Assembly (NCBI GenBank): GCA_041180115.1
Contig: JBEGRZ010000002.1
Location: 13,615 to 77,614 of the forward strand
Length of the DNA stretch: 64,000 nt
Source of the DNA: Actinomycetota bacterium
GTDB taxonomy: Bacteria; Actinomycetota; Actinomycetes; Actinomycetales; Microbacteriaceae
Direction: 5' to 3'
Part shown: piece after piece, positions 54,162 to 62,255 of the stretch
How positions within the stretch are numbered: the first letter of the stretch is position 1
How the letters are laid out: the number at the start of each line of letters is the position of its first letter
Notes under the pieces: model-generated
The model's input: the letters and a program-made list of their open reading frames with translations, nothing else
Databases searched by the model: none
Told to the model about the DNA's origin: nothing
Position numbers and translations under genes: made by a program

Positions 54162-56585
54162 ATGACTTCAAAGAGCCAGCACGACGAGAAAATCGTTGAC
54201 ATTGACCTGACCAAGGAAATGCAGGAGTCGTTCCTGGAATATTCCTACTCGGTCATTTACTCACGCGCGCTGCCTGATGCCAGAGATGGGCTGAAGCCGG
54301 TTCACCGCCGAATCATTTACATGATGGGCGAAATGGGCTTGCGCCCAGACAAGGGTCACGTGAAATCGGCTCGTGTCACCGGTGAGGTAATGGGTAAGCT
54401 CCACCCGCACGGCGACTCAGCAATCTACGACGCAATGGTTCGTATGGCCCAAGACTTCAGTCTTCGTATGCCGCTGATTGATGGTCACGGAAACTTCGGA
54501 AGCTTGGATGATGGACCTGCTGCCGCTCGGTACACCGAAGCACGCCTGAGTCACGCTTCGATGCTTATGAACGCCGACTTGGATGAAGACGTCGTAGATT
54601 TCAAGCCAAACTATGACGCCCAGTTGACCGAACCAGAAGTGCTTCCGGCCGCTTTTCCGAACCTTCTGGTCAACGGTTCAACCGGTATCGCGGTTGGTAT
54701 GGCAACCAACATGGCTCCACACAATCTTCGCGAAGTAATCGCTGGAGCTATTCACCTGCTTCGCAACGTCGACGCATCTACCGAAGACCTGATGAAATTT
54801 GTGCCTGGCCCAGACCTCCCCACCGGTGGCTCGATTGTTGGACTAGAAGGCATCCGTGACGCATACGAGACTGGTCGAGGTATCTTCAAGACTCGCGCCA
54901 AGGTATCCGTTGAGAGCGTAAGCCCGCGCAAGCTCGGCCTAGTGGTTACTGAGCTTCCTTACCTCGTTGGCCCTGAAAAGGTCATCGAGAAGATCAAGGA
55001 AGGCGTGAACAACAAAAAACTACAAGGCATCGCTAACGTAACCGACCTCACGGACCGCAACAACGGTTTGAAACTGGTCATTGAACTCAAGACCGGTTTC
55101 GACCCACAGGTCGTTCTAGATTTGCTCTACCGCTTCACCCCGATGGAAGATTCATTCGGAATCAACAACGTGGCGCTAGTACATGGCCGTCCACAGACCC
55201 TAAGTCTTCGCCAGCTGCTTGGTGAATTCCTCGCTCACCGAATTCAGGTAACTCGTCGCCGTAGTGCAAACCGCCTCGGTAAGAAGAAAGCTCGCGCCCA
55301 CCTGGTTGAAGGTCTACTGAAGGCAATCCTAGAAATTGATGAGGTAATTCGCGTCATTCGAAACTCGGACGAAGTGGACCAGGCCCGCTCGAACCTGATG
55401 ACTCGTTTCGAGCTATCAGAACTTCAGGCCGAGTACATTCTGGAACTGAGACTGCGCAGACTCACTAAGTTCAGCAAGTTAGAACTTGATGCCGAACTTT
55501 CGGAACTCAAGAAGGAAATTGAGCTCCTTGAGAAGCTTTTGGCAAACGACAATCTTTTGAAAGACCTTGTTGCTTCCGAACTAGAAGAAGTTGCCGCCAA
55601 GTACGGAGATGACCGTCGCACCGTTCTAGTAGACGGTCAGATCGAAGTGAAGCCGATTTCGAATGCCAAGGCAATTAGCGAAGGTGCAGAGCTTGCCGAC
55701 ACGGAGTGTTCAATCCTGCTCACATCAAGCGGTTTGCTCGGTCGTAGCCCTGCCTTCAACGCAACTGTTCCCGGCGCCAAGCGCAAACGCCATGACGGTG
55801 TTGGAACCCACGTAGAGACCACCACCCGCAAGGACGTCGGCTTCCTCACCAGCACCGGCCGCATGCTCCGTATTCACGCTGGGGACATTCCACCAGCTGG
55901 AGATGTGTTCGACGCTGGAAGCGCTGTCGACGCAGCCAAGTTCCTAGGTCTCAGCGGCTCGGAGAAGCTTCTTGGCATGTTTGACCTGAGCGGAACCAGT
56001 GAGATCGCGCTGGCAACTGCTGATGGTGTGATCAAGCGTGTGAACGCCGACTACCCTCCAAAGGATGAGTTCGAAATAATCACCTTGAAGGATGGCGACT
56101 CCGTTGTAGGCGCCGCCATAGCCGATCGTGCAACCGAATACGTTCTGGTTTCCTCAGATGCTCAGCTGCTACGTTTCGATGCGGCCAGCGTGCGTGCCAC
56201 CGGCCGTGCCGCGGCTGGTATAGCCGGCATGAACCTGAGCGAGGGTGCAACCGTAATTGGATTTGGTGTGATTGAAGACGCTGAAAACGTTCAGGTGATT
56301 ACCGCAGCGAAGTCTGCTAGCACCTTGGCTGGCATCGATGGTGGCAGCATTAAGCGATCCGCGCTGAGCGAGTTCCCAGCCAAGGGCCGTGCCACCGGCG
56401 GTGTTCGCGCTCACAAGTTCATTCGCGATGAAGATCATTTGTATTTCGCGGCAGTTGCCGATGCCGAACCACTGGGTGCCAGTGCGGATGGAAAGCCGAT
56501 TGACCTGATGAGTTTTGAGCTCACTAAACGCGACGCCAGCGGAACACCAACCGACAGCGCTATCGCATCGGTTGGTAGCCGCTAA
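54162..56585 (+). CDS. parC: type IIA topoisomerase subunit A, ParC-like (topoisomerase IV)
   Basis: 807 aa. [22 protein letters not shown] and the catalytic Tyr in [10 protein letters not shown] are present. I find no GyrA-box (QRRGGKG) in the C-terminal domain, and the gene is paired with a GyrB/ParE homologue away from any dnaA/gyrB context. Confidence 0.88.
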
Positions 56586-58670
56586 CTAAGCGTCGATTTT
56601 GTCGGTGTCGAAATCATCGGCTGAGTCGATGATGAATTCGCGTCGAGGTGCGACCTCGTTACCCATAAGTAACTCGAATACCTTTTCGGCCGCCTCGGCA
56701 TCTTCGACGCGTACGCGGCGAAGGGTGCGGTGATCGCGGTCCATAGTGGTTTCTGCTAGCTGATCCGCATCCATTTCACCAAGACCCTTGTAACGCTGAA
56801 TTGGCTCTTGGTAACGCTTTCCCGAAGCAGCGAGTTTGGTAAGCACCGCTTCTAGTTCAGCCTGTGAGTAGGTGTAGAGAGTGTCATTTGGCTTGGAACC
56901 AGGGTTCACAACCACAACGCGGTGCAATGGCGGCACAGCAGCGAATACGCGACCGGCTTCAACCATTGGTCTCATGTAGCGGAAAAACAGTGTGAGCAGG
57001 AGGGTACGAATGTGAGCACCGTCAACATCCGCATCACTCATGAGGATTACCTTGCCGTAGCGAGCCGCATCTAACTCAAAGCTCCGGCCTGAACCGGCAC
57101 CGATCACCTGAATGATTGAAGCGCACTCGGTGTTGGAAAGCATGTCTGAAACGGAAGCCTTCTGAACGTTCAGGATCTTTCCGCGAATTGGAAGTAGCGC
57201 TTGGAACTCACTGTTACGGGCAAGCTTTGCGGTACCCAGGGCCGAGTCACCCTCCACGATGAACAACTCAGAACCTTCGGTCTCCTGAGTGCGGCAGTCA
57301 ACCAACTTAGTTGGAAGTGATGAAGTTTCCAGAGCGTTCTTGCGGCGCTGAGTTTCCTTGTGGGTTCGGGCCGAGATACGAGACTTCATCTCGGTAACAA
57401 TCTTCTCGAGCAGCAGAGCCGACTGAGACTTGTCATCACGTTTGGTCGAACCGAAACGATCTGCAAGCGCCTTGGCAACCACGTTGGTTACAATGTTGCG
57501 CACCGCTGGAGTACCTAGGATTTCCTTGGTCTGGCCTTCGAACTGAGGCTCGGCGATACGAACTGAAACGATGGCGGTGAGGCCGGCGAGAATATCTTCC
57601 TTCTCAACCTTGTCATTGCCAACTTTGAGTTTTCTGGCATTTGCGTCGATCTGCGCACGAAGAGTCTTCATCAGACCTGCTTCGAAACCAGCGATGTGGG
57701 TTCCACCCTTTGGAGTGGCGATGATGTTTACGAAGGACTTAACCTCTGACTCGTAGCCAGTGCCCCAGCGAAGTGCAACCTCAACTCCGCACTTACGCGC
57801 CACCTCTCGGGAAACCATATTTCCCGATTCGTCAAGCACAGGAACGGTCTCGGTGTAGTCACCCTCGCCGGTGATGCGCCAGGTGGCCGTGAGCGGGGCG
57901 TCCTTGGCTAGGAAGTCTGCAAATTCAGTAAGCCCGCCATCGAAGCGGAACTTGTGTTCGACTGGCTCAGCAAGGCGCTCATCGCGAACTGAGATGGCAA
58001 GGCCAGAGACTAGAAAAGCGGTCTGTCTGGCTCGACCGATCAGGTCTTCCAATTCAAATTTGGCGTCCTTGATGAAAATCTGTGGGTCGGTCCAATAGCG
58101 CACTCGGGTACCCGAAACACCCTTGGCAATCTTGCCGATTTCGCGAAGCTTGCTGGCATCCTCAAACGGCTGGAACGGATTCGAGGCAGCAATCCCCTTG
58201 GAGTCATCGAAGATGCCCGGCTCACCGCGACGGAACGACATCGCATAAGTTTTGCCATCGCGGTCAACTTCAACATCCAAACGCTCGGACAATGCATTCA
58301 CAACCGATGCACCAACACCGTGTAGACCGCCGGATGCCGCGTAAGAGCCGGAGCCAAACTTTCCACCAGCGTGCAACTTGGTGAAAACCACTTCAACACC
58401 GGTCAGTCCGGTTTTCGGTTCGATGTCTACCGGGATGCCTCGAGCGTGGTCGCGAACTTCAACCGAACCGTCGTTGTGGAGTTTGACCTCGATGCTATTT
58501 CCATAGCCTGCTAGGGCTTCGTCTACCGAGTTGTCGATGATCTCCCAAAGGCAGTGCATGAGACCGCGGGAATCAGTAGAACCGATGTACATACCCGGAC
58601 GTTTACGTACAGCTTCTAACCCCTCTAGAACAGAGAGGTGTCTTGCTGAGTAATCGTTGTTTGGCACCAA
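56586..58670 (-). CDS. parE: type IIA topoisomerase subunit B, ParE-like (topoisomerase IV)
   Basis: 694 aa. The GHKL ATPase (GLHCLWEIIDNSVDE-like, GGLHGVGASVVNALS), Toprim (ELFIVEGDSA) and PLRGKILNV-like motifs are present. Confidence 0.88.
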   Translation of the reverse strand: MVPNNDYSARHLSVLEGLEAVRKRPGMYIGSTDSRGLMHCLWEIIDNSVDEALAGYGNSIEVKLHNDGSVEVRDHARGIPVDIEPKTGLTGVEVVFTKLHAGGKFGSGSYAASGGLHGVGASVVNALSERLDVEVDRDGKTYAMSFRRGEPGIFDDSKGIAASNPFQPFEDASKLREIGKIAKGVSGTRVRYWTDPQIFIKDAKFELEDLIGRARQTAFLVSGLAISVRDERLAEPVEHKFRFDGGLTEFADFLAKDAPLTATWRITGEGDYTETVPVLDESGNMVSREVARKCGVEVALRWGTGYESEVKSFVNIIATPKGGTHIAGFEAGLMKTLRAQIDANARKLKVGNDKVEKEDILAGLTAIVSVRIAEPQFEGQTKEILGTPAVRNIVTNVVAKALADRFGSTKRDDKSQSALLLEKIVTEMKSRISARTHKETQRRKNALETSSLPTKLVDCRTQETEGSELFIVEGDSALGTAKLARNSEFQALLPIRGKILNVQKASVSDMLSNTECASIIQVIGAGSGRSFELDAARYGKVILMSDADVDGAHIRTLLLTLFFRYMRPMVEAGRVFAAVPPLHRVVVVNPGSKPNDTLYTYSQAELEAVLTKLAASGKRYQEPIQRYKGLGEMDADQLAETTMDRDHRTLRRVRVEDAEAAEKVFELLMGNEVAPRREFIIDSADDFDTDKIDA

Positions 58671-58736
58671 AAAATGCTAACTGAAGCCTCTGACCTTACC
58701 TCTGACTGACACACTGCTAAATAGACTGATAGCACT

Positions 58737-59324
58737 ATGACTTCGAGAGTGCATTCAGGGCGGCTACGTCGTGAACTGCGCCTTTCGAAGTCGGCTGTTG
58801 AGGCAAATCTCTCTGTTCTGGGGCTCAGCCCAGAAGAAGCTCGTCCGGTCATTGACGCAGTGATGACTTTCGATGGGCTCCTCGGGCTCTATGGCACCGA
58901 ACTACTCTTGCTTGAAAAAGTCTTGGGGCTTGGCACCGAAACCCCAGCGGTTCGCCTTGTTGGTGAACTCGTCTCGGTGAAGCAGGTTCCGGCTGACACC
59001 GGCATATCATACGGACACCTTTCTAAGACTTCTGAGCCAACCAACCTAGGCTTGGTCGCCCTAGGCTTTTCTGACGGAATCCCGCGAGCCGCCACCAACG
59101 AACTAATGGTCAAGATTCAGGGCAAGGCATACAAAAATGTGGGCCGCATCGCGATGGATCAGCTCATTATCAATCTAGGTATCGATAGCCCGTCCATTGG
59201 TTCCGAGGTTGAGCTTTTCGGCGATGCGCAGACTTTGGCGCAATTGGCCGGAGTTACCGGATTCTCCCCGCTTGAAATCATCGGACGCATCCCGGCTCGT
59301 GTTGCTAGGACGTGGTCGGATTGA
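58737..59324 (+). CDS. stand-alone alanine-racemase C-terminal-domain protein (retains catalytic-Tyr motif)
   Basis: 195 aa. LVGELVSVKQVPADTGISYGH...LGLVALGFSDGIPR...VGRIAMDQLIINLG...GSEVELFG aligns by eye with the whole Ala_racemase_C beta-domain, including the SYG Tyr (nt 59010-59012) and the MDQ motif. No PLP-Lys barrel is present. It could alternatively be a gene remnant. Confidence 0.6.
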   Translation: MTSRVHSGRLRRELRLSKSAVEANLSVLGLSPEEARPVIDAVMTFDGLLGLYGTELLLLEKVLGLGTETPAVRLVGELVSVKQVPADTGISYGHLSKTSEPTNLGLVALGFSDGIPRAATNELMVKIQGKAYKNVGRIAMDQLIINLGIDSPSIGSEVELFGDAQTLAQLAGVTGFSPLEIIGRIPARVARTWSD

Positions 59325-60331
59325 CCGTAGCCAAGCATGTAGATCTCGCGGCTTACGTTCGAAACCTAAAGACCATTCGAGAGCAGATGCAGCCTGCGCG
59401 CATAATGGCCGTTGTGAAGGCGGACGCCTATGGTCACGGATTGGTCGAGGTAGCCAAGGCTGCCGCGACCGCCGGCATCAACCTGCTTGGCGTACTCGAT
59501 GTTGAGACCGGCTTGGAACTGCGCCTGGCTGGAGTTCAGACCACCGCCTTCGCTTGGGTGCACTCCCCTTCTACCGACTTCGAAGCAGCCATTCGCTCGA
59601 ACATCGAACTTAGCGCTTCTTCCTTAGCCGAGCTCGAACGCATCGCGATGGCCCCTGGCATGGCCAAGGTTCACTTGAAACTTGACTCCGGACTTAGCCG
59701 GGGTGGAACCCGAATTGAGGATTGGGACGCACTGGTGACTCGTGCTGTAGCACTGGACGCCCGCGACAAGATTGACCTGGTGGCCGTTTGGTCGCACCTC
59801 TCGGGAACCTCAAAGTCTGCCGACGAAGCCTCGATAGCTCTCTTTGACGAAGCGACCAATCGCGCCTTCGACCTCGGCTTCACCGGCTATCGACACATTG
59901 CTTCGAGCCCGGCTGCATTTGCACTTCCGCAGTCTCGTTATGAGCTCGTGCGCATTGGTGTGAGTGCATTTGGCACCTCGCCGATTGAGGGCCGCAAGGC
60001 TTCATCGTTCGATCTCGAATGTCCAATGACGGTGACAGCAGAAGTAATTGCTCCGCAGGTAATTTCAATCGGTTTTCTCCACGGCTACTTCTCAAAGCTC
60101 AGCGGCAAGGCCAAGGTACTAATCGGCGGTCGTGCGTACCAGGTGACTCAGGTTGGTCCGCTCGCGTCCAAGATCGAGGCTGGCGACTATAGCGAAGGTG
60201 ATGAGGTTTTGGTTTTTGGTGGCGAGGATACTGGCGCTCCAACCGCGGAATACCTTTGTGAATTGGTTGAAACCGTAACCGATGAAATCTTCACCGGCCT
60301 GAAGGCAAACTCAACGATTTACTCGTCTTGA
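59312..60331 (+). CDS. alanine-racemase-family PLP enzyme with degenerate C-terminal domain
   Basis: 339 aa. The barrel motifs are intact: MAVVKADAYGHG (PLP Lys at nt 59417-59419), WSHLSG and VRIGVSAFG. The C-terminal domain lacks the GE.V.YG segment and the MD motif. It overlaps the upstream ORF by 13 nt. Confidence 0.8.
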   Translation: MVGLTVAKHVDLAAYVRNLKTIREQMQPARIMAVVKADAYGHGLVEVAKAAATAGINLLGVLDVETGLELRLAGVQTTAFAWVHSPSTDFEAAIRSNIELSASSLAELERIAMAPGMAKVHLKLDSGLSRGGTRIEDWDALVTRAVALDARDKIDLVAVWSHLSGTSKSADEASIALFDEATNRAFDLGFTGYRHIASSPAAFALPQSRYELVRIGVSAFGTSPIEGRKASSFDLECPMTVTAEVIAPQVISIGFLHGYFSKLSGKAKVLIGGRAYQVTQVGPLASKIEAGDYSEGDEVLVFGGEDTGAPTAEYLCELVETVTDEIFTGLKANSTIYSS

Positions 60332-61009
60332 GATAGCCTCTCGAGACTTTTCGGCAAGTTGATTTAGCGTCGCATTCCTCTTGGCAACTTTGCCCGAAAT
60401 TCCTAGCAACTCATCGGCGACACTTGGGTTCATCGGCAGGAACGGACCCTGAATGTTGGTGGCGATGATGTTGCCAGTGCGGTAGCCGTCTTGGTAACCG
60501 ACCAATTGCGCCTCATTCGAAGACGAAACCGTGGCCAAAATTGACTCTGTCCCACCACGCACAATCTCGCGGTTCCAGTTGATGAATCCCGCTAGTCCAG
60601 ATTCGGTTACAACTTCACCAACTAGGTGATCGTTAGTGATTCGATGCCTGGTATCGGCGAGACCCAGCCCAAATAGGGTTTGCCCGGGCTCAACTTCAAG
60701 ACCTTTGGAGATTAGGTCGAAACCCGCGCCAACCGCGAGAACCTTGGCACCCGCGCCAACCCAATCAATAAGCTTTGGAGACTTCTTTTCGAGATCCACA
60801 GAGGCGACCTTCACCGCACTGAGGATTCCGGAACCGATGAAAATCAAGTCGGGTTTTTCGGTTGGTAGGTTTTCACCCAACTCGACCGACTGAACTGCTA
60901 CTTCTAGCCCACTCGCCTTGCCGCGTTCTACAAGCGCAACGACATTTCCAACTTCCCCGTTTAGGTGAAGGGTATTTGGGTAGAGATGAAGAATCGTGAA
61001 TTTAGGCAT
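60311..61009 (-). CDS. gatD: GatD-like (CobB/CobQ-type GATase fold) partner of MurT, cysteine-free
   Basis: The ATG at 61009 (MPKFTILHLYP...) overlaps the murT stop by 8 nt. The 232-aa product is collinear with GatD, but the nucleophile elbow reads LAVGAGFDL and the His motif reads NIQGPFLP. There are no Cys codons in the ORF. Confidence 0.82.
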   Translation of the reverse strand: MPKFTILHLYPNTLHLNGEVGNVVALVERGKASGLEVAVQSVELGENLPTEKPDLIFIGSGILSAVKVASVDLEKKSPKLIDWVGAGAKVLAVGAGFDLISKGLEVEPGQTLFGLGLADTRHRITNDHLVGEVVTESGLAGFINWNREIVRGGTESILATVSSSNEAQLVGYQDGYRTGNIIATNIQGPFLPMNPSVADELLGISGKVAKRNATLNQLAEKSREAISRRVNR

Positions 61010-62255
61010 TTCCGCCCTCAAGGTCTAGAAGGCCGAGACGCTTGCGCAACCACATCATCTGCTCGTAATTGATCACTGCGGTTTTGTTGGTGCCAGGCAG
61101 TTTCAGGAAGTACTCAAGCGCTGCGTTTTCGTCCTCAATTAGTTCACCGAAATCTAGGTTCTCGTAGGCGAGCCTTGTGGCCCACTGGTAAGTCTTGGTT
61201 CCCGAAATGACATCTGCATGGCGAAGTTTGCCGAGGTCAATATCGTAAATCCACGAAGGATCCGGCGTTCCCTCGTCAACGGAAATCCACACGGTCTTTG
61301 GACTCTCCTGCAATGCATCGAGGTTCGCCTGCAGGCTTGGCAAATTCTTCATCATGATGATTTCGATGTTCTGGCCCTGGTGATGAATAACTTCGCCACG
61401 ACCATAAACGGCTTGCAGTTCGGAAATCGCATCGGCGGCAACCTGCGCCTTGAAATCGGCGCCGATGATCTTCGATGCCATACCGATAGCCAGAGCCGCA
61501 TCGACGGCATAGTGAAGCCCTGCAGCCGGCAGAGTCAGCTCGACCGCGGCACCGCCGTGAGTGATGACCGCACGGTTCCCCGATGTTGAAACTAGATTGA
61601 TGATGTGTTGCAGGTCCGATTCATCTAAGTCAAAACTAGGTGCAGCCAGGATTCCATTTCTGGCCGATGCCACAGCTTCCTTGCTTGCGTAAACTCCGAA
61701 AGCCTTGAGACGTGCTCGGTGTCCCTTGGCTAGTCGTTCGGTATTCGGATCGGTTCCGTTGACCACCAGTAGTTCTTTAGTGAGAGTGGCCAGCTCGTCA
61801 AGGTAACCAAACACTTCTTCCGGTGAATGGAAGCGGTTCAGCTGATCAAACTGCAGGTTGGTTAGCAGTAGACCGTTTGGCGCAACCTTTTTGGCAATTA
61901 ACTTTCCGTAGGCTTCGTCAACTTCAAGCACAGCCACATCGTGATCAAGGCGTCCGAAGAGACTGACGTCGGCCAGCAGAGCCGATGCCAGTCCCTGCGG
62001 AAGGTTACCGCCAGCTGGGTTAGAAAGAACTCTTAGCCCATGAGCACGCAGAACCTTGACCAGCATTGCTGTTGTCGTTGATTTACCGTTGGATCCGCTT
62101 ACGAAATAGATTCCGCGCTGCATGCGGCCGAGAGTTTTCTGGAGGAACTTAGGCTCGATTGCTAGGGCGATTCGACCGGGAACGGCCGAACCACCACCAC
62201 GCAGCCTAAGGACAAAGCGAAGCGCCTTGCCCACCAGAACTGCCAGTGGAATCAT
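61002..62255 (-). CDS. murT: MurT-like Mur-ligase-family protein
   Basis: 417 aa. The P-loop VSGSNGKSTT, EVDE, TNLQFDQLNRF and the MurT C-terminal string DPSWIYDIDLGKL are present. There are no Cys codons in the ORF. Confidence 0.85.
   Translation of the reverse strand: MIPLAVLVGKALRFVLRLRGGGSAVPGRIALAIEPKFLQKTLGRMQRGIYFVSGSNGKSTTTAMLVKVLRAHGLRVLSNPAGGNLPQGLASALLADVSLFGRLDHDVAVLEVDEAYGKLIAKKVAPNGLLLTNLQFDQLNRFHSPEEVFGYLDELATLTKELLVVNGTDPNTERLAKGHRARLKAFGVYASKEAVASARNGILAAPSFDLDESDLQHIINLVSTSGNRAVITHGGAAVELTLPAAGLHYAVDAALAIGMASKIIGADFKAQVAADAISELQAVYGRGEVIHHQGQNIEIIMMKNLPSLQANLDALQESPKTVWISVDEGTPDPSWIYDIDLGKLRHADVISGTKTYQWATRLAYENLDFGELIEDENAALEYFLKLPGTNKTAVINYEQMMWLRKRLGLLDLEGGNA

Follow-up and report, generated by a model that had tools for sequence, protein, structure and literature searches.

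At positions 58,737 to 60,331 of the stretch of DNA analysed here, two adjacent genes each encode only a part of what resembles an alanine racemase, and the locus raises the question of whether they are remnants of a duplicated gene or the two subunits of one enzyme. The stretch, called the window below, comprises 64,000 nucleotides (nt) of contig JBEGRZ010000002.1 from a member of the Microbacteriaceae. Alanine racemase (Alr), a target of drugs, is a textbook case of an obligate homodimer. The original prediction proposed that the upstream open reading frame (ORF) of 195 amino acids (aa), here named S, and the longer downstream ORF, here named L, form a heteromer with a single composite active site. 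This proposal was supported by all comparative tests that were run, namely adjacency of the two genes at 7/7 loci, purifying selection, complementarity in three classes of active-site residues and single-chain fusions with one Lys and one Tyr. By these comparisons S and L appear to be complementary 'half-dead' copies of an Alr-type enzyme in a design conserved across Microbacteriaceae, and we consider it likely that they constitute an obligate heterodimeric racemase of the Alr fold, dependent on pyridoxal 5′-phosphate (PLP), with one composite active site.

Domain composition and complementarity of S and L

The predicted coordinates of S (58737-59324) proved correct. In a Pfam profile search S matched Ala_racemase_C (PF00842) with its residues 72-192 over profile positions 2-126 of 127 (E = 8e-28, 96.9 bits), which corresponds to a complete C-terminal beta domain, and it gave no match to the barrel family Ala_racemase_N (PF01168). 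In a Foldseek search S aligned to Alr C domains at root mean square deviations of 1.5-2.7 Å. The AF2 model of S alone (predicted local distance difference test, pLDDT, 90; predicted TM-score, pTM, 0.85) shows a strand at residues 13-17 and four helices at residues 18-62, all with a pLDDT of about 90. According to this model S would be the whole beta domain, including the strand that precedes the barrel in the full-length enzyme, with the barrel swapped for a short helical connector; the connector is predicted to be a remnant of the excised barrel and to include the LGLYG relic of strand 8. The earlier description of S as essentially a C-terminal domain plus a strand relic is therefore right as to the complete C domain and the missing barrel, but it overlooked the N-terminal strand and the helical connector of about 50 residues.

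Motif inspection and alignments of S proteins showed that S retains the Tyr segment (DTGISYGH, with Tyr92) and GRIAMDQ, as originally noted. The SYG motif is invariant in 31/31 S sequences reaching down to 30% identity, as are D-G..R and G-R-x-A-M-D-Q in the same alignment; SYG was also found in 12/12 S sequences of a separate column comparison (see below) and is retained in distant S proteins too. Homologues of S form about 97 clusters at 90% identity, and almost all of these are 191-195 aa long. In the longer S proteins of the Leifsonia type (220-250 aa) xADAYGHG is retained, with Arg replacing the Schiff-base Lys.

The matching profile for L is PF01168, which it covers over the full 220 positions (E = 2.6e-46, 158.5 bits, gathering cut-off 24.1), and the PLP-binding TIM barrel is thus contributed to the pair by L and not by S. 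The match of L to PF00842 is partial (profile positions 36-122, E = 7.8e-8, 32.4 bits). All three barrel motifs listed in the original prediction, AVVKADAYGHG, SHLSG and RIGVSAFG, are found in L. The Schiff-base lysine is invariant in 39/39 L proteins, and so are the equivalents of Tyr43, Lys129 (carbamylated), Arg136, His166 and Arg219 (numbering of G. stearothermophilus Alr, used throughout). This lysine had been correctly identified as the catalytic one; its number changes from Lys36 to Lys33 when counted from the likelier TTG start codon.

Alignments of L to solved Alr structures and to canonical actinobacterial Alr bore out the two losses that had been postulated. A gap of about 23 residues lies between EVIAPQ and VISIGF, at the site of the G.GVSYG Tyr loop, and the GRxxMDQ position reads VTQVGPLASK; a catalytic Tyr was not revealed anywhere in L. 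The Tyr loop is absent in 17/17 L proteins, the length of the gap varying by lineage from 15 to 23 residues. The AF2 model of L alone reaches a pLDDT of 94 and a pTM of 0.90, and in a structure search the fold gave TM-scores of 0.94-0.95 to the enzymes of M. tuberculosis and Streptomyces. At 90% identity the L homologues fall into 73 clusters of about 336 aa and about 30 more distant L-type clusters. Pfam E-values and family sizes put the S/L pattern far beyond chance. Against the alr equivalog TIGR00492 of NCBIfam, L scored 148 bits and S 89.7 bits, both under the curated cut-off of 168 bits, and neither qualifies as an alr equivalog.

For a comparison column by column, 19 canonical Alr, 17 L and 12 S sequences were used. 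The barrel residues that act in cis (Lys39, Tyr43, His, Lys129, Arg136, His166, Arg219) are kept in 17/17 L; S either lacks them or, where it still has a relic, shows a replacement (Lys to Arg). In the second class, the cis-acting C-terminal T-I-x-Tyr354-E, the flanks are kept in L (Glu in 17/17) and decayed in S. The residues that act in trans (the V..G.GVSY loop, Arg290′, Arg309′, Met312′ and Asp313′) are kept in 12/12 S and deleted or replaced in 17/17 L, with the Arg309′ equivalent deleted throughout and the Met312′ equivalent replaced. Thus, the two paralogues lack complementary subsets of the interface active-site residues. The Schiff-base Lys and the catalytic Tyr do not occur in one polypeptide, L having only the Lys and S only the Tyr, and the same holds for the 17 L and 12 S relatives. 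Such a pattern would be expected if the barrel of L and the C domain of S formed the one remaining site and the symmetry-related site, made of the S 'barrel' and the C domain of L, had been abandoned; the sequences imply at most one complete site per L·S pair. On this one-site reading the trimmed C domain would be kept in L because it caps L's own site.

A search among 50%-identity representatives of 1.8 billion proteins gave the same picture. At the Lys position of the xADAYGHG relic, the 30 short S-like representatives carry R (23), S (5), A (1) or T (1), and none carries K. The search also returned single chains of 568-735 aa with two Alr halves, in the order S-L (P0415; P0419, NCBI MBC7723224.1, from a metagenome-assembled genome (MAG) of Microbacteriaceae; P0446; P0464) or L-S (P0440, with four members from four assemblies, and P0409). 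Every fusion combines a single barrel that bears the Lys with a single C domain that bears the Tyr, the two being located in different halves. In three S-L fusions the dead barrel is of full length (Lys changed to Ser or Gly, or the motif erased), and in P0464 it is truncated. When two proteins are fused in some lineages, this is classically taken as evidence that the separate versions work together. These fusions are known from protein records; a first metagenome scan for a fused locus (P0415) was empty, and a second gave two more split S-L loci and no fusion. In the window S and L are separate ORFs in different frames, and a single chain with the order C domain to barrel occurs in relatives only. 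The L-S fusions may represent an independent origin of the one-site design.

In the enzyme that we propose, the cis contribution of L would comprise the barrel with the Schiff-base Lys33 and the Arg, His and Tyr residues that bind PLP, together with a C-terminal helix capping its own site. S would provide in trans the catalytic Tyr92, Arg117 and GRIAMDQ, closing the site and holding the substrate carboxylate. The second, symmetry-related site would be dismantled from both sides, S being without a barrel and L without the Tyr loop and MDQ. Both chains would be made from one transcript by termination and reinitiation at the TTGA junction of the two genes, and the pair would derive from a tandem of a canonical-type alr and its paralogue alr2, which is still intact in Cnuibacter and Planctomonas.

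Selection, distribution and origin of the gene pair

The ratio of nonsynonymous to synonymous substitution rates (dN/dS) was computed against the nearest relative locus, L001, from which the window differs by a dS of about 1.1. It amounted to 0.079 for the whole of S and 0.082 for its N-terminal 70 residues, and to 0.056 for the whole of L and 0.038 for its trimmed C-terminal domain. Since dN/dS is 0.04-0.08 in all four parts, neither gene is decaying, and the 'degenerate' parts are as constrained as the catalytic ones. The view of these halves as relics, which the original prediction had implied, was not upheld, as the parts themselves are conserved. Likewise, S is not missing from close relatives, as it might be if it were a decaying fragment: it is present there and under purifying selection.

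The gene order parC (forward), parE (reverse), S and L (forward), gatD, murT and a sigma70 gene (all reverse) is found in the window and in relatives. It is common to Rhodoluna-like freshwater MAGs, ten Leifsonia species, Schumannella, two Pseudolysinimonas and several further MAGs; one L cluster bears the name Rhodoluna sp. S directly precedes L at no fewer than 25 distinct loci (at least 25, from Rhodoluna-like MAGs, Leifsonia, Schumannella, Pseudolysinimonas and Gulosibacter), i.e. the two-gene arrangement recurs across several genera of the Microbacteriaceae. The syntenic loci were retrieved with S as the query and are hence biased towards the presence of S. L-type proteins were then looked up independently, and an S-type gene lay immediately upstream in 7/7 L-type genes found in this way (Gulosibacter chungangensis, three metagenomic lineages with DNA and one without, and two loci from the last metagenome scan). 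S was upstream at all L loci examined, and the fusions exist in addition.

Outside this distribution, eight metagenome contigs with a GC content of 0.40-0.48 (L100, L102, L109, L110, L113, L115, L116, L118) have one alr of the ordinary kind after glmS. Judging by GC content and sequence identity, they probably stem from freshwater actinobacteria of another order. The split design does not seem to be general in small low-GC actinobacterial genomes.

Two full-length Alr genes, alr1 and alr2, lie head to tail with a 4-nt overlap in Cnuibacter sp. UC19_7 (L012:5302-7616) and Planctomonas psychrotolerans (L024:5236-7541). This tandem sits between glmS and tsaE and not at parE-gatD. The upstream gene is canonical (TINYEIVT); the downstream gene combines Lys, Tyr and MDQ with an Asp at position 354 (TIGDEIVA). 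Neighbour-joining trees were calculated, which as distance trees on short alignments are indicative only. In the barrel tree L and alr2 form one clade (100% bootstrap) apart from canonical Microbacteriaceae Alr. In the C-domain tree S is monophyletic (71-72%) and is placed loosely with the canonical group, not with alr2 or L; the mean identity of the S C domains is 0.46 to canonical Alr, 0.41 to alr2 and 0.26 to L. The simplest model would be that the pair descends from a copied alr1-alr2 tandem by loss of the barrel from the upstream gene and of the trans-acting hairpin from the downstream gene. This simple course of events is complicated by the barrel tree, which nests the full-length alr2 inside the L clade (97% bootstrap), whereas the C-domain tree keeps L monophyletic. 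Because of this discordant placement of alr2, and because the deletion lengths of 15-23 residues vary among L lineages, the history of S and L may have involved parallel losses, recombination or a long-branch artefact.

Candidate substrate, related enzymes and rival explanations

In 39 L proteins the residue at position 354, occupied by Tyr in the canonical relatives, is Asp (32), Glu (6) or Tyr (1), with the flanking T..E invariant; in L of the window the alanine-restricting Tyr354 is replaced by Asp321. No alignment column passed a strict specificity filter, which asked for the canonical residue in 85% or more of canonical Alr and for another residue in 75% or more of L, and only position 354 and a change from E to T or A after strand 3 stand out between L and canonical Alr. 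The tight Tyr265′/Tyr354 pair defines the alanine specificity of Alr; in lysine and broad-spectrum racemases Tyr354 is changed to Thr or Ala, and residue 354 contacts the side-chain amine of docked lysine (PMC3485190). In a model of the Salmonella ornithine racemase OrnR the delta-amine of ornithine adjoins the equivalent of Tyr354 (PMC13397332). By analogy a short basic side chain would be well matched by an acidic residue at position 354. With Tyr354 replaced by Asp or Glu in the alr2/L lineage, the enzyme probably prefers a short basic amino acid, although this is less certain than the heterodimer itself. The S-L enzyme may racemise alanine as well.

The earlier statement that the substrate need not be alanine gains support from this replacement in 38/39 L proteins and from genera in which the pair occurs and glmS-tsaE holds a canonical alr. 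The order glmS-acpS-alr-tsaE was found in a Schumannella genome and a Leifsonia MAG, and a canonical alr locus in one further genome; these loci were reached via a TsaD-based search, and none is from a genome known to carry the S-L pair. Since canonical alr is present at glmS-tsaE in Schumannella and Leifsonia, the pair is probably an additional enzyme in these genera. A canonical alr also occurs on L094 (GC 0.59), whose sample accession is close to that of the S-L locus L092 (GC 0.565), which is only suggestive. The patterns of a contig scan (GRIAMDQ[CLF][VI] and LV[AG][LI]G[FY][SA]DG[IL]) miss canonical GRVAMDQV or LVPLGYADG, and missing canonical matches in Leifsonia are therefore no evidence.

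Cell wall chemistry offers a candidate among the basic amino acids. The walls of Leifsonia contain 2,4-diaminobutyrate (Dab). Rhodoluna lacicola has a B2-beta peptidoglycan with Dab, and its partial hydrolysates contain D-Ala-D-Dab (PMC4156110). The only enzyme named as a dedicated Dab racemase in a 2021 paper is PddB, which is PLP-independent (PMC8225329). At the locus of Gulosibacter chungangensis (L090:7120-9478) the S-L pair is followed by an ATP-grasp ligase and faces a diaminobutyrate-2-oxoglutarate transaminase of the EctB type (619 bits, cut-off 438), with neither ectA nor ectC in view at that locus. In one metagenomic lineage murT, gatD, S and L all lie on one strand. For the Rhodoluna-like source organism these data make L-2,4-diaminobutyrate, yielding the D-Dab of the B-type cross-bridge, the most likely candidate substrate, and the pair may thus supply an unusual D-amino acid for the cell wall of Microbacteriaceae. 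That Dab or another diamino acid is the main substrate of the pair is nevertheless a tentative assignment, to which we give less than even chances.

A wider and somewhat more speculative proposal is that S·L and its intact relative alr2 are the missing PLP-dependent L-/D-2,4-diaminobutyrate (or diamino-acid) racemase that supplies the B-type cross-bridge, that the neighbouring MurT-like ligase and GatD, or the ATP-grasp protein, act on the alpha-carboxyl of D-Glu, and that the racemase is a bacterial one-site enzyme built from complementary pseudoenzymes. If true, the D-diamino acid of the B-type cross-bridge, a chemotaxonomic hallmark of Microbacteriaceae, would get its racemase, and a long-open step of B-type peptidoglycan synthesis would become directly testable. 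Moreover, the enzyme would have been caught at every stage, from the intact tandem over the dead full-length barrel, the truncated barrel and the excised barrel to re-fusion.

Several observations weigh against a diamino acid as the substrate of an additional racemase, and some of them favour an alternative by which the same heterodimer is the housekeeping alanine racemase of a streamlined genome, with Asp354 tolerated or merely broadening the specificity. Besides S and L, no other Alr homologue was found within the 64-kb window, and the best 120 matches to L include no canonical Alr of Rhodoluna-like amino-acid composition; in the streamlined source genome the pair could be the only alanine racemase. 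Coexistence of canonical alr and the pair is seen at the genus level only, and not for the Rhodoluna-like lineage. The L-S fusions retain Tyr354, i.e. a one-site design does not depend on a change of substrate, and they show one-site enzymes of presumably alanine type. The C domain of S resembles canonical alr1, and D-Ala is required by every peptidoglycan maker. Homologues of the Gulosibacter Dab transaminase and ATP-grasp ligase occur neither in the window nor at the other loci, and the link to Dab is drawn from a single residue, a single gene neighbourhood and wall chemistry. Furthermore, in Agromyces, Cryobacterium and Plantibacter, which have Dab-type walls, the loci retrieved held a canonical alr and no pair. 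Nevertheless, we regard a housekeeping role as unlikely: Asp or Glu at position 354 in 38/39 L proteins indicates a strong constraint, alr2 coexists with canonical alr1 in Cnuibacter and Planctomonas, and canonical alr is found at glmS-tsaE in genera with the pair.

Three further explanations dispense with the composite site altogether. L keeps a complete PLP site and could be active alone as a homodimer, with S as an accessory or regulatory protein, if it used one-base PLP chemistry or another second base in the way OrnR, an Alr-family enzyme without the Tyr, uses Cys164 (PMC13397332). We consider this improbable, as the position of Cys164 (three residues after the His) is occupied in L proteins by Gly, Asp, Asn or Glu and never by Cys, L adds no invariant Cys, Tyr, Lys or His of its own family to the canonical set, S keeps invariant the catalytic trans residues that a mere regulator would not need, and the fusions retain one Tyr per chain. 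Still less probable is a non-catalytic pair of pseudoenzymes, or an S that partners canonical Alr instead of L. Both chains do score under the NCBIfam cut-off for alr and neither alone has the full catalytic set, but all PLP-binding and catalytic residues are invariant when S and L are summed, and strict adjacency, the coupled junction and the S-L fusions tie S to L specifically. The least credible reading takes the two ORFs for decaying fragments of a duplicated alr or for one gene split by a frameshift or sequencing error, with programmed frameshifting into a circularly permuted enzyme as a variant. A truncated copy upstream of a deleted copy does have the look of early pseudogenisation, and the frames differ by one at the junction. 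On the other side stand dN/dS values of 0.04-0.08 at saturated dS, about 200 homologous clusters of constant length and the same split in several genera, comparative data by which decay or a frameshift is refuted; in addition, there is no slippery site at the junction, and a 10-nt spacer between the genes at six Leifsonia loci excludes an obligatory fusion.

In a comparison of the heterodimeric reading with characterised enzymes, canonical Alr/DadX (G. stearothermophilus 1SFT, M. tuberculosis 1XFC, Streptomyces 1VFH/5FAC) shares with S-L the fold and the PLP site and, as the conserved residues suggest, the two-base Lys/Tyr′ chemistry at the subunit interface. It is a homodimer of identical chains with two sites, whereas S-L would have two different chains, one site by sequence and Asp at 354. 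The alr1-alr2 tandem has the gene order, the 4-nt overlap, the downstream Asp354 and the barrel clade of S-L; it differs in that both genes are intact (Lys, Tyr, MDQ) and lie at glmS-tsaE, and it is uncharacterised. The racemases Lyr (4DZA) and Bar/BsrV (4DYJ/7AGZ) belong to the Alr family and, like L, have Tyr354 replaced, with the pocket opened to long basic substrates (PMC3485190). Unlike S-L they are homodimers with the Tyr intact and a non-acidic Thr or Ala at 354, and Asn replaces the residue beside Arg136; a carbamylated Lys is not seen in them, its task being ascribed to an Asn by proposal. L does not follow this type, as it has Asp at 354 and its equivalent of the carbamylated Lys, Lys120, is invariant. 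The best sequence matches of L are actinobacterial Alr, those to Bsr and Lyr being far weaker.

OrnR resembles L as an Alr-family chain without the catalytic Tyr (PMC13397332). It is homo-oligomeric and replaces the Tyr by Cys164 of its own barrel, three residues after the PLP-stacking His/Asn (PMC13397332), whereas L lacks such a Cys, having Gly at this position (WSHLSG), and is always accompanied by a Tyr-bearing partner. PddB would share the substrate Dab with S-L if the Dab reading were right, but its fold is DapF-like and cofactor-independent, and its role lies in the synthesis of poly-D-Dab (PMC8225329). In concept, the closest system by analogy appears to be the deoxyhypusine synthase of trypanosomatids. 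Its paralogues DHSc and DHSp reportedly show shared active-site complementation between pseudoenzymes. As is proposed for S-L, an interface site is rebuilt from paralogues with different lost residues, giving one live and one dead site per dimer; fold, chemistry and kingdom are different, and the dead domains are kept, whereas in S-L one is excised. Neither a heteromeric or split alanine racemase nor stand-alone Alr C-domain proteins were found described in full-text literature searches, and the solved structures matching L or S by sequence or fold all carry the names of homomeric enzymes.

A conserved natural heterodimer would show that the two-site symmetry of Alr is dispensable. The intact tandem, the dead-barrel fusions, S with a truncated barrel, barrel-less S and the L-S fusions would form a rare graded series for the interdependence of paralogues. 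Hundreds of database entries named 'alanine racemase' or 'alanine racemase C-terminal domain-containing protein' are predicted to be inactive alone, and metabolic reconstructions that count them as Alr or vanT may be wrong. For a vancomycin-sensitive strain related to Schumannella, whose wall is of the Dab type, a CARD/RGI scan is reported to give a 'vanT' at 31% identity (PMC12275160); Alr-like paralogues of the S-L family are probably being mislabelled as resistance genes.

Features and neighbourhood of the locus

Table 1 Features of the S-L locus (positions refer to the window)
Feature	Position	Strand	Description
Upstream region	58700..58736	+	Conserved; -10-like TAGACT at 58722-58727, 9 nt 5′ of the S start codon
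S	58737..59324	+	195-aa barrel-less predicted subunit: N-terminal strand, helical connector (~50 aa), complete Alr C-terminal beta domain
S Tyr92	59010..59012	+	In DTGISYGH; equivalent of catalytic Tyr265′ of G. stearothermophilus Alr (base predicted to be supplied in trans)
S Arg117	59085..59087	+	In DGIPR; equivalent of entryway Arg290′; invariant in S, Ser/Thr/Pro in 17/17 L
S GRIAMDQ	59142..59162	+	Residues 136-142; equivalents of Arg309′, Met312′ and Asp313′: putative trans-acting carboxylate and entryway residues
Coupling junction	59307..59324	+	AGGA 59307-59310, 10 nt 5′ of the TTG start (59321-59323), which overlaps the S stop TGA (59322-59324)
L	59321..60331	+	336 aa (339 aa from GTG 59312); intact PLP-binding TIM barrel and trimmed C-terminal domain
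L Lys33 (Lys36 from GTG start)	59417..59419	+	Predicted PLP Schiff-base lysine and D-side base; invariant in 39/39 L
Deletion scar in L	60053..60064	+	Between APQ and VIS, break between 60058 and 60059; ~23-residue Tyr hairpin missing
L Asp321	60281..60283	+	In TVTDEIFT; takes the place of the cis-acting Tyr354, by which Alr binds the PLP phosphate and is restricted to alanine (PMC3485190)
L/gatD convergent 3′ overlap	60311..60331		21 nt; gatD homologue 60311-61021 on the minus strand, then murT 61002-62255; also in L001

The original prediction let L begin at the GTG codon and regarded the resulting 13-nt overlap of the ORFs as a sign of co-translation. The ORFs do overlap, but according to the gene callers and a comparison with 25 related loci L most probably starts at the TTG, giving a 4-nt TTGA start/stop overlap, and the longer overlap is less likely. 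An NTGA overlap was found in 19 of 26 junctions, including both full-length alr1-alr2 tandems; 24 of the 26 are S-L junctions, 18 of which show it (5 counted as ATGA in one subset). The junction of the closest relative is ATGA, and ATGA or GTGA occurs at most other loci; the spaced junctions are the six of Leifsonia mentioned above, and one locus has TGATG. By its sequence, the TTGA junction is a classic arrangement for coupling by termination and reinitiation, and would imply translational coupling of S and L instead of mere co-translation.

Upstream of S a stretch of 37 nt is conserved: CTGACTGACAC...TAGACT is nearly invariant in six Rhodoluna-like loci despite saturated synonymous divergence of the coding DNA. 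We infer a promoter role for the TAGACT box, which was not flagged by a generic promoter scan; the promoter/terminator scan was uninformative. Since no Shine-Dalgarno sequence is visible before S in the upstream stretch, a leaderless S transcript, or one in which the leader is very short, is plausible.

Directly upstream of S, window positions 54162-58670 hold genes for gyrA-like (807 aa, PF00521) and gyrB-like (694 aa) topoisomerase subunits. They form a divergent/convergent pair abutting at 56585/56586 with zero spacer, and the names parC and parE are by position only. In Leifsonia-type and other high-GC loci a DUF7455 gene (78-101 aa) lies between parE and S (L004:9728-9964, L091:7197-7460, L093:2419-2724). 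This gene is absent from the window, where the spacer between parE and S is only 66 nt.

On the other side of the pair gatD and murT overlap by 20 nt (60311-62255, minus strand). Their products normally amidate the alpha-carboxyl of D-Glu, and the genes are conserved beside S-L where the B-type wall uses the same carboxyl for its cross-bridge. At the Gulosibacter and P0189 loci murT and gatD are replaced by genes for an ATP-grasp protein (PF14397) and a CofE-like protein. The representative search also contained Alr fusions of other kinds, namely with the D-Ala-D-Ala ligase Ddl (P0431 and P0461, the latter possibly cut at its N terminus) and with TsaE (P0420 and P0426), the usual downstream neighbour of Alr.

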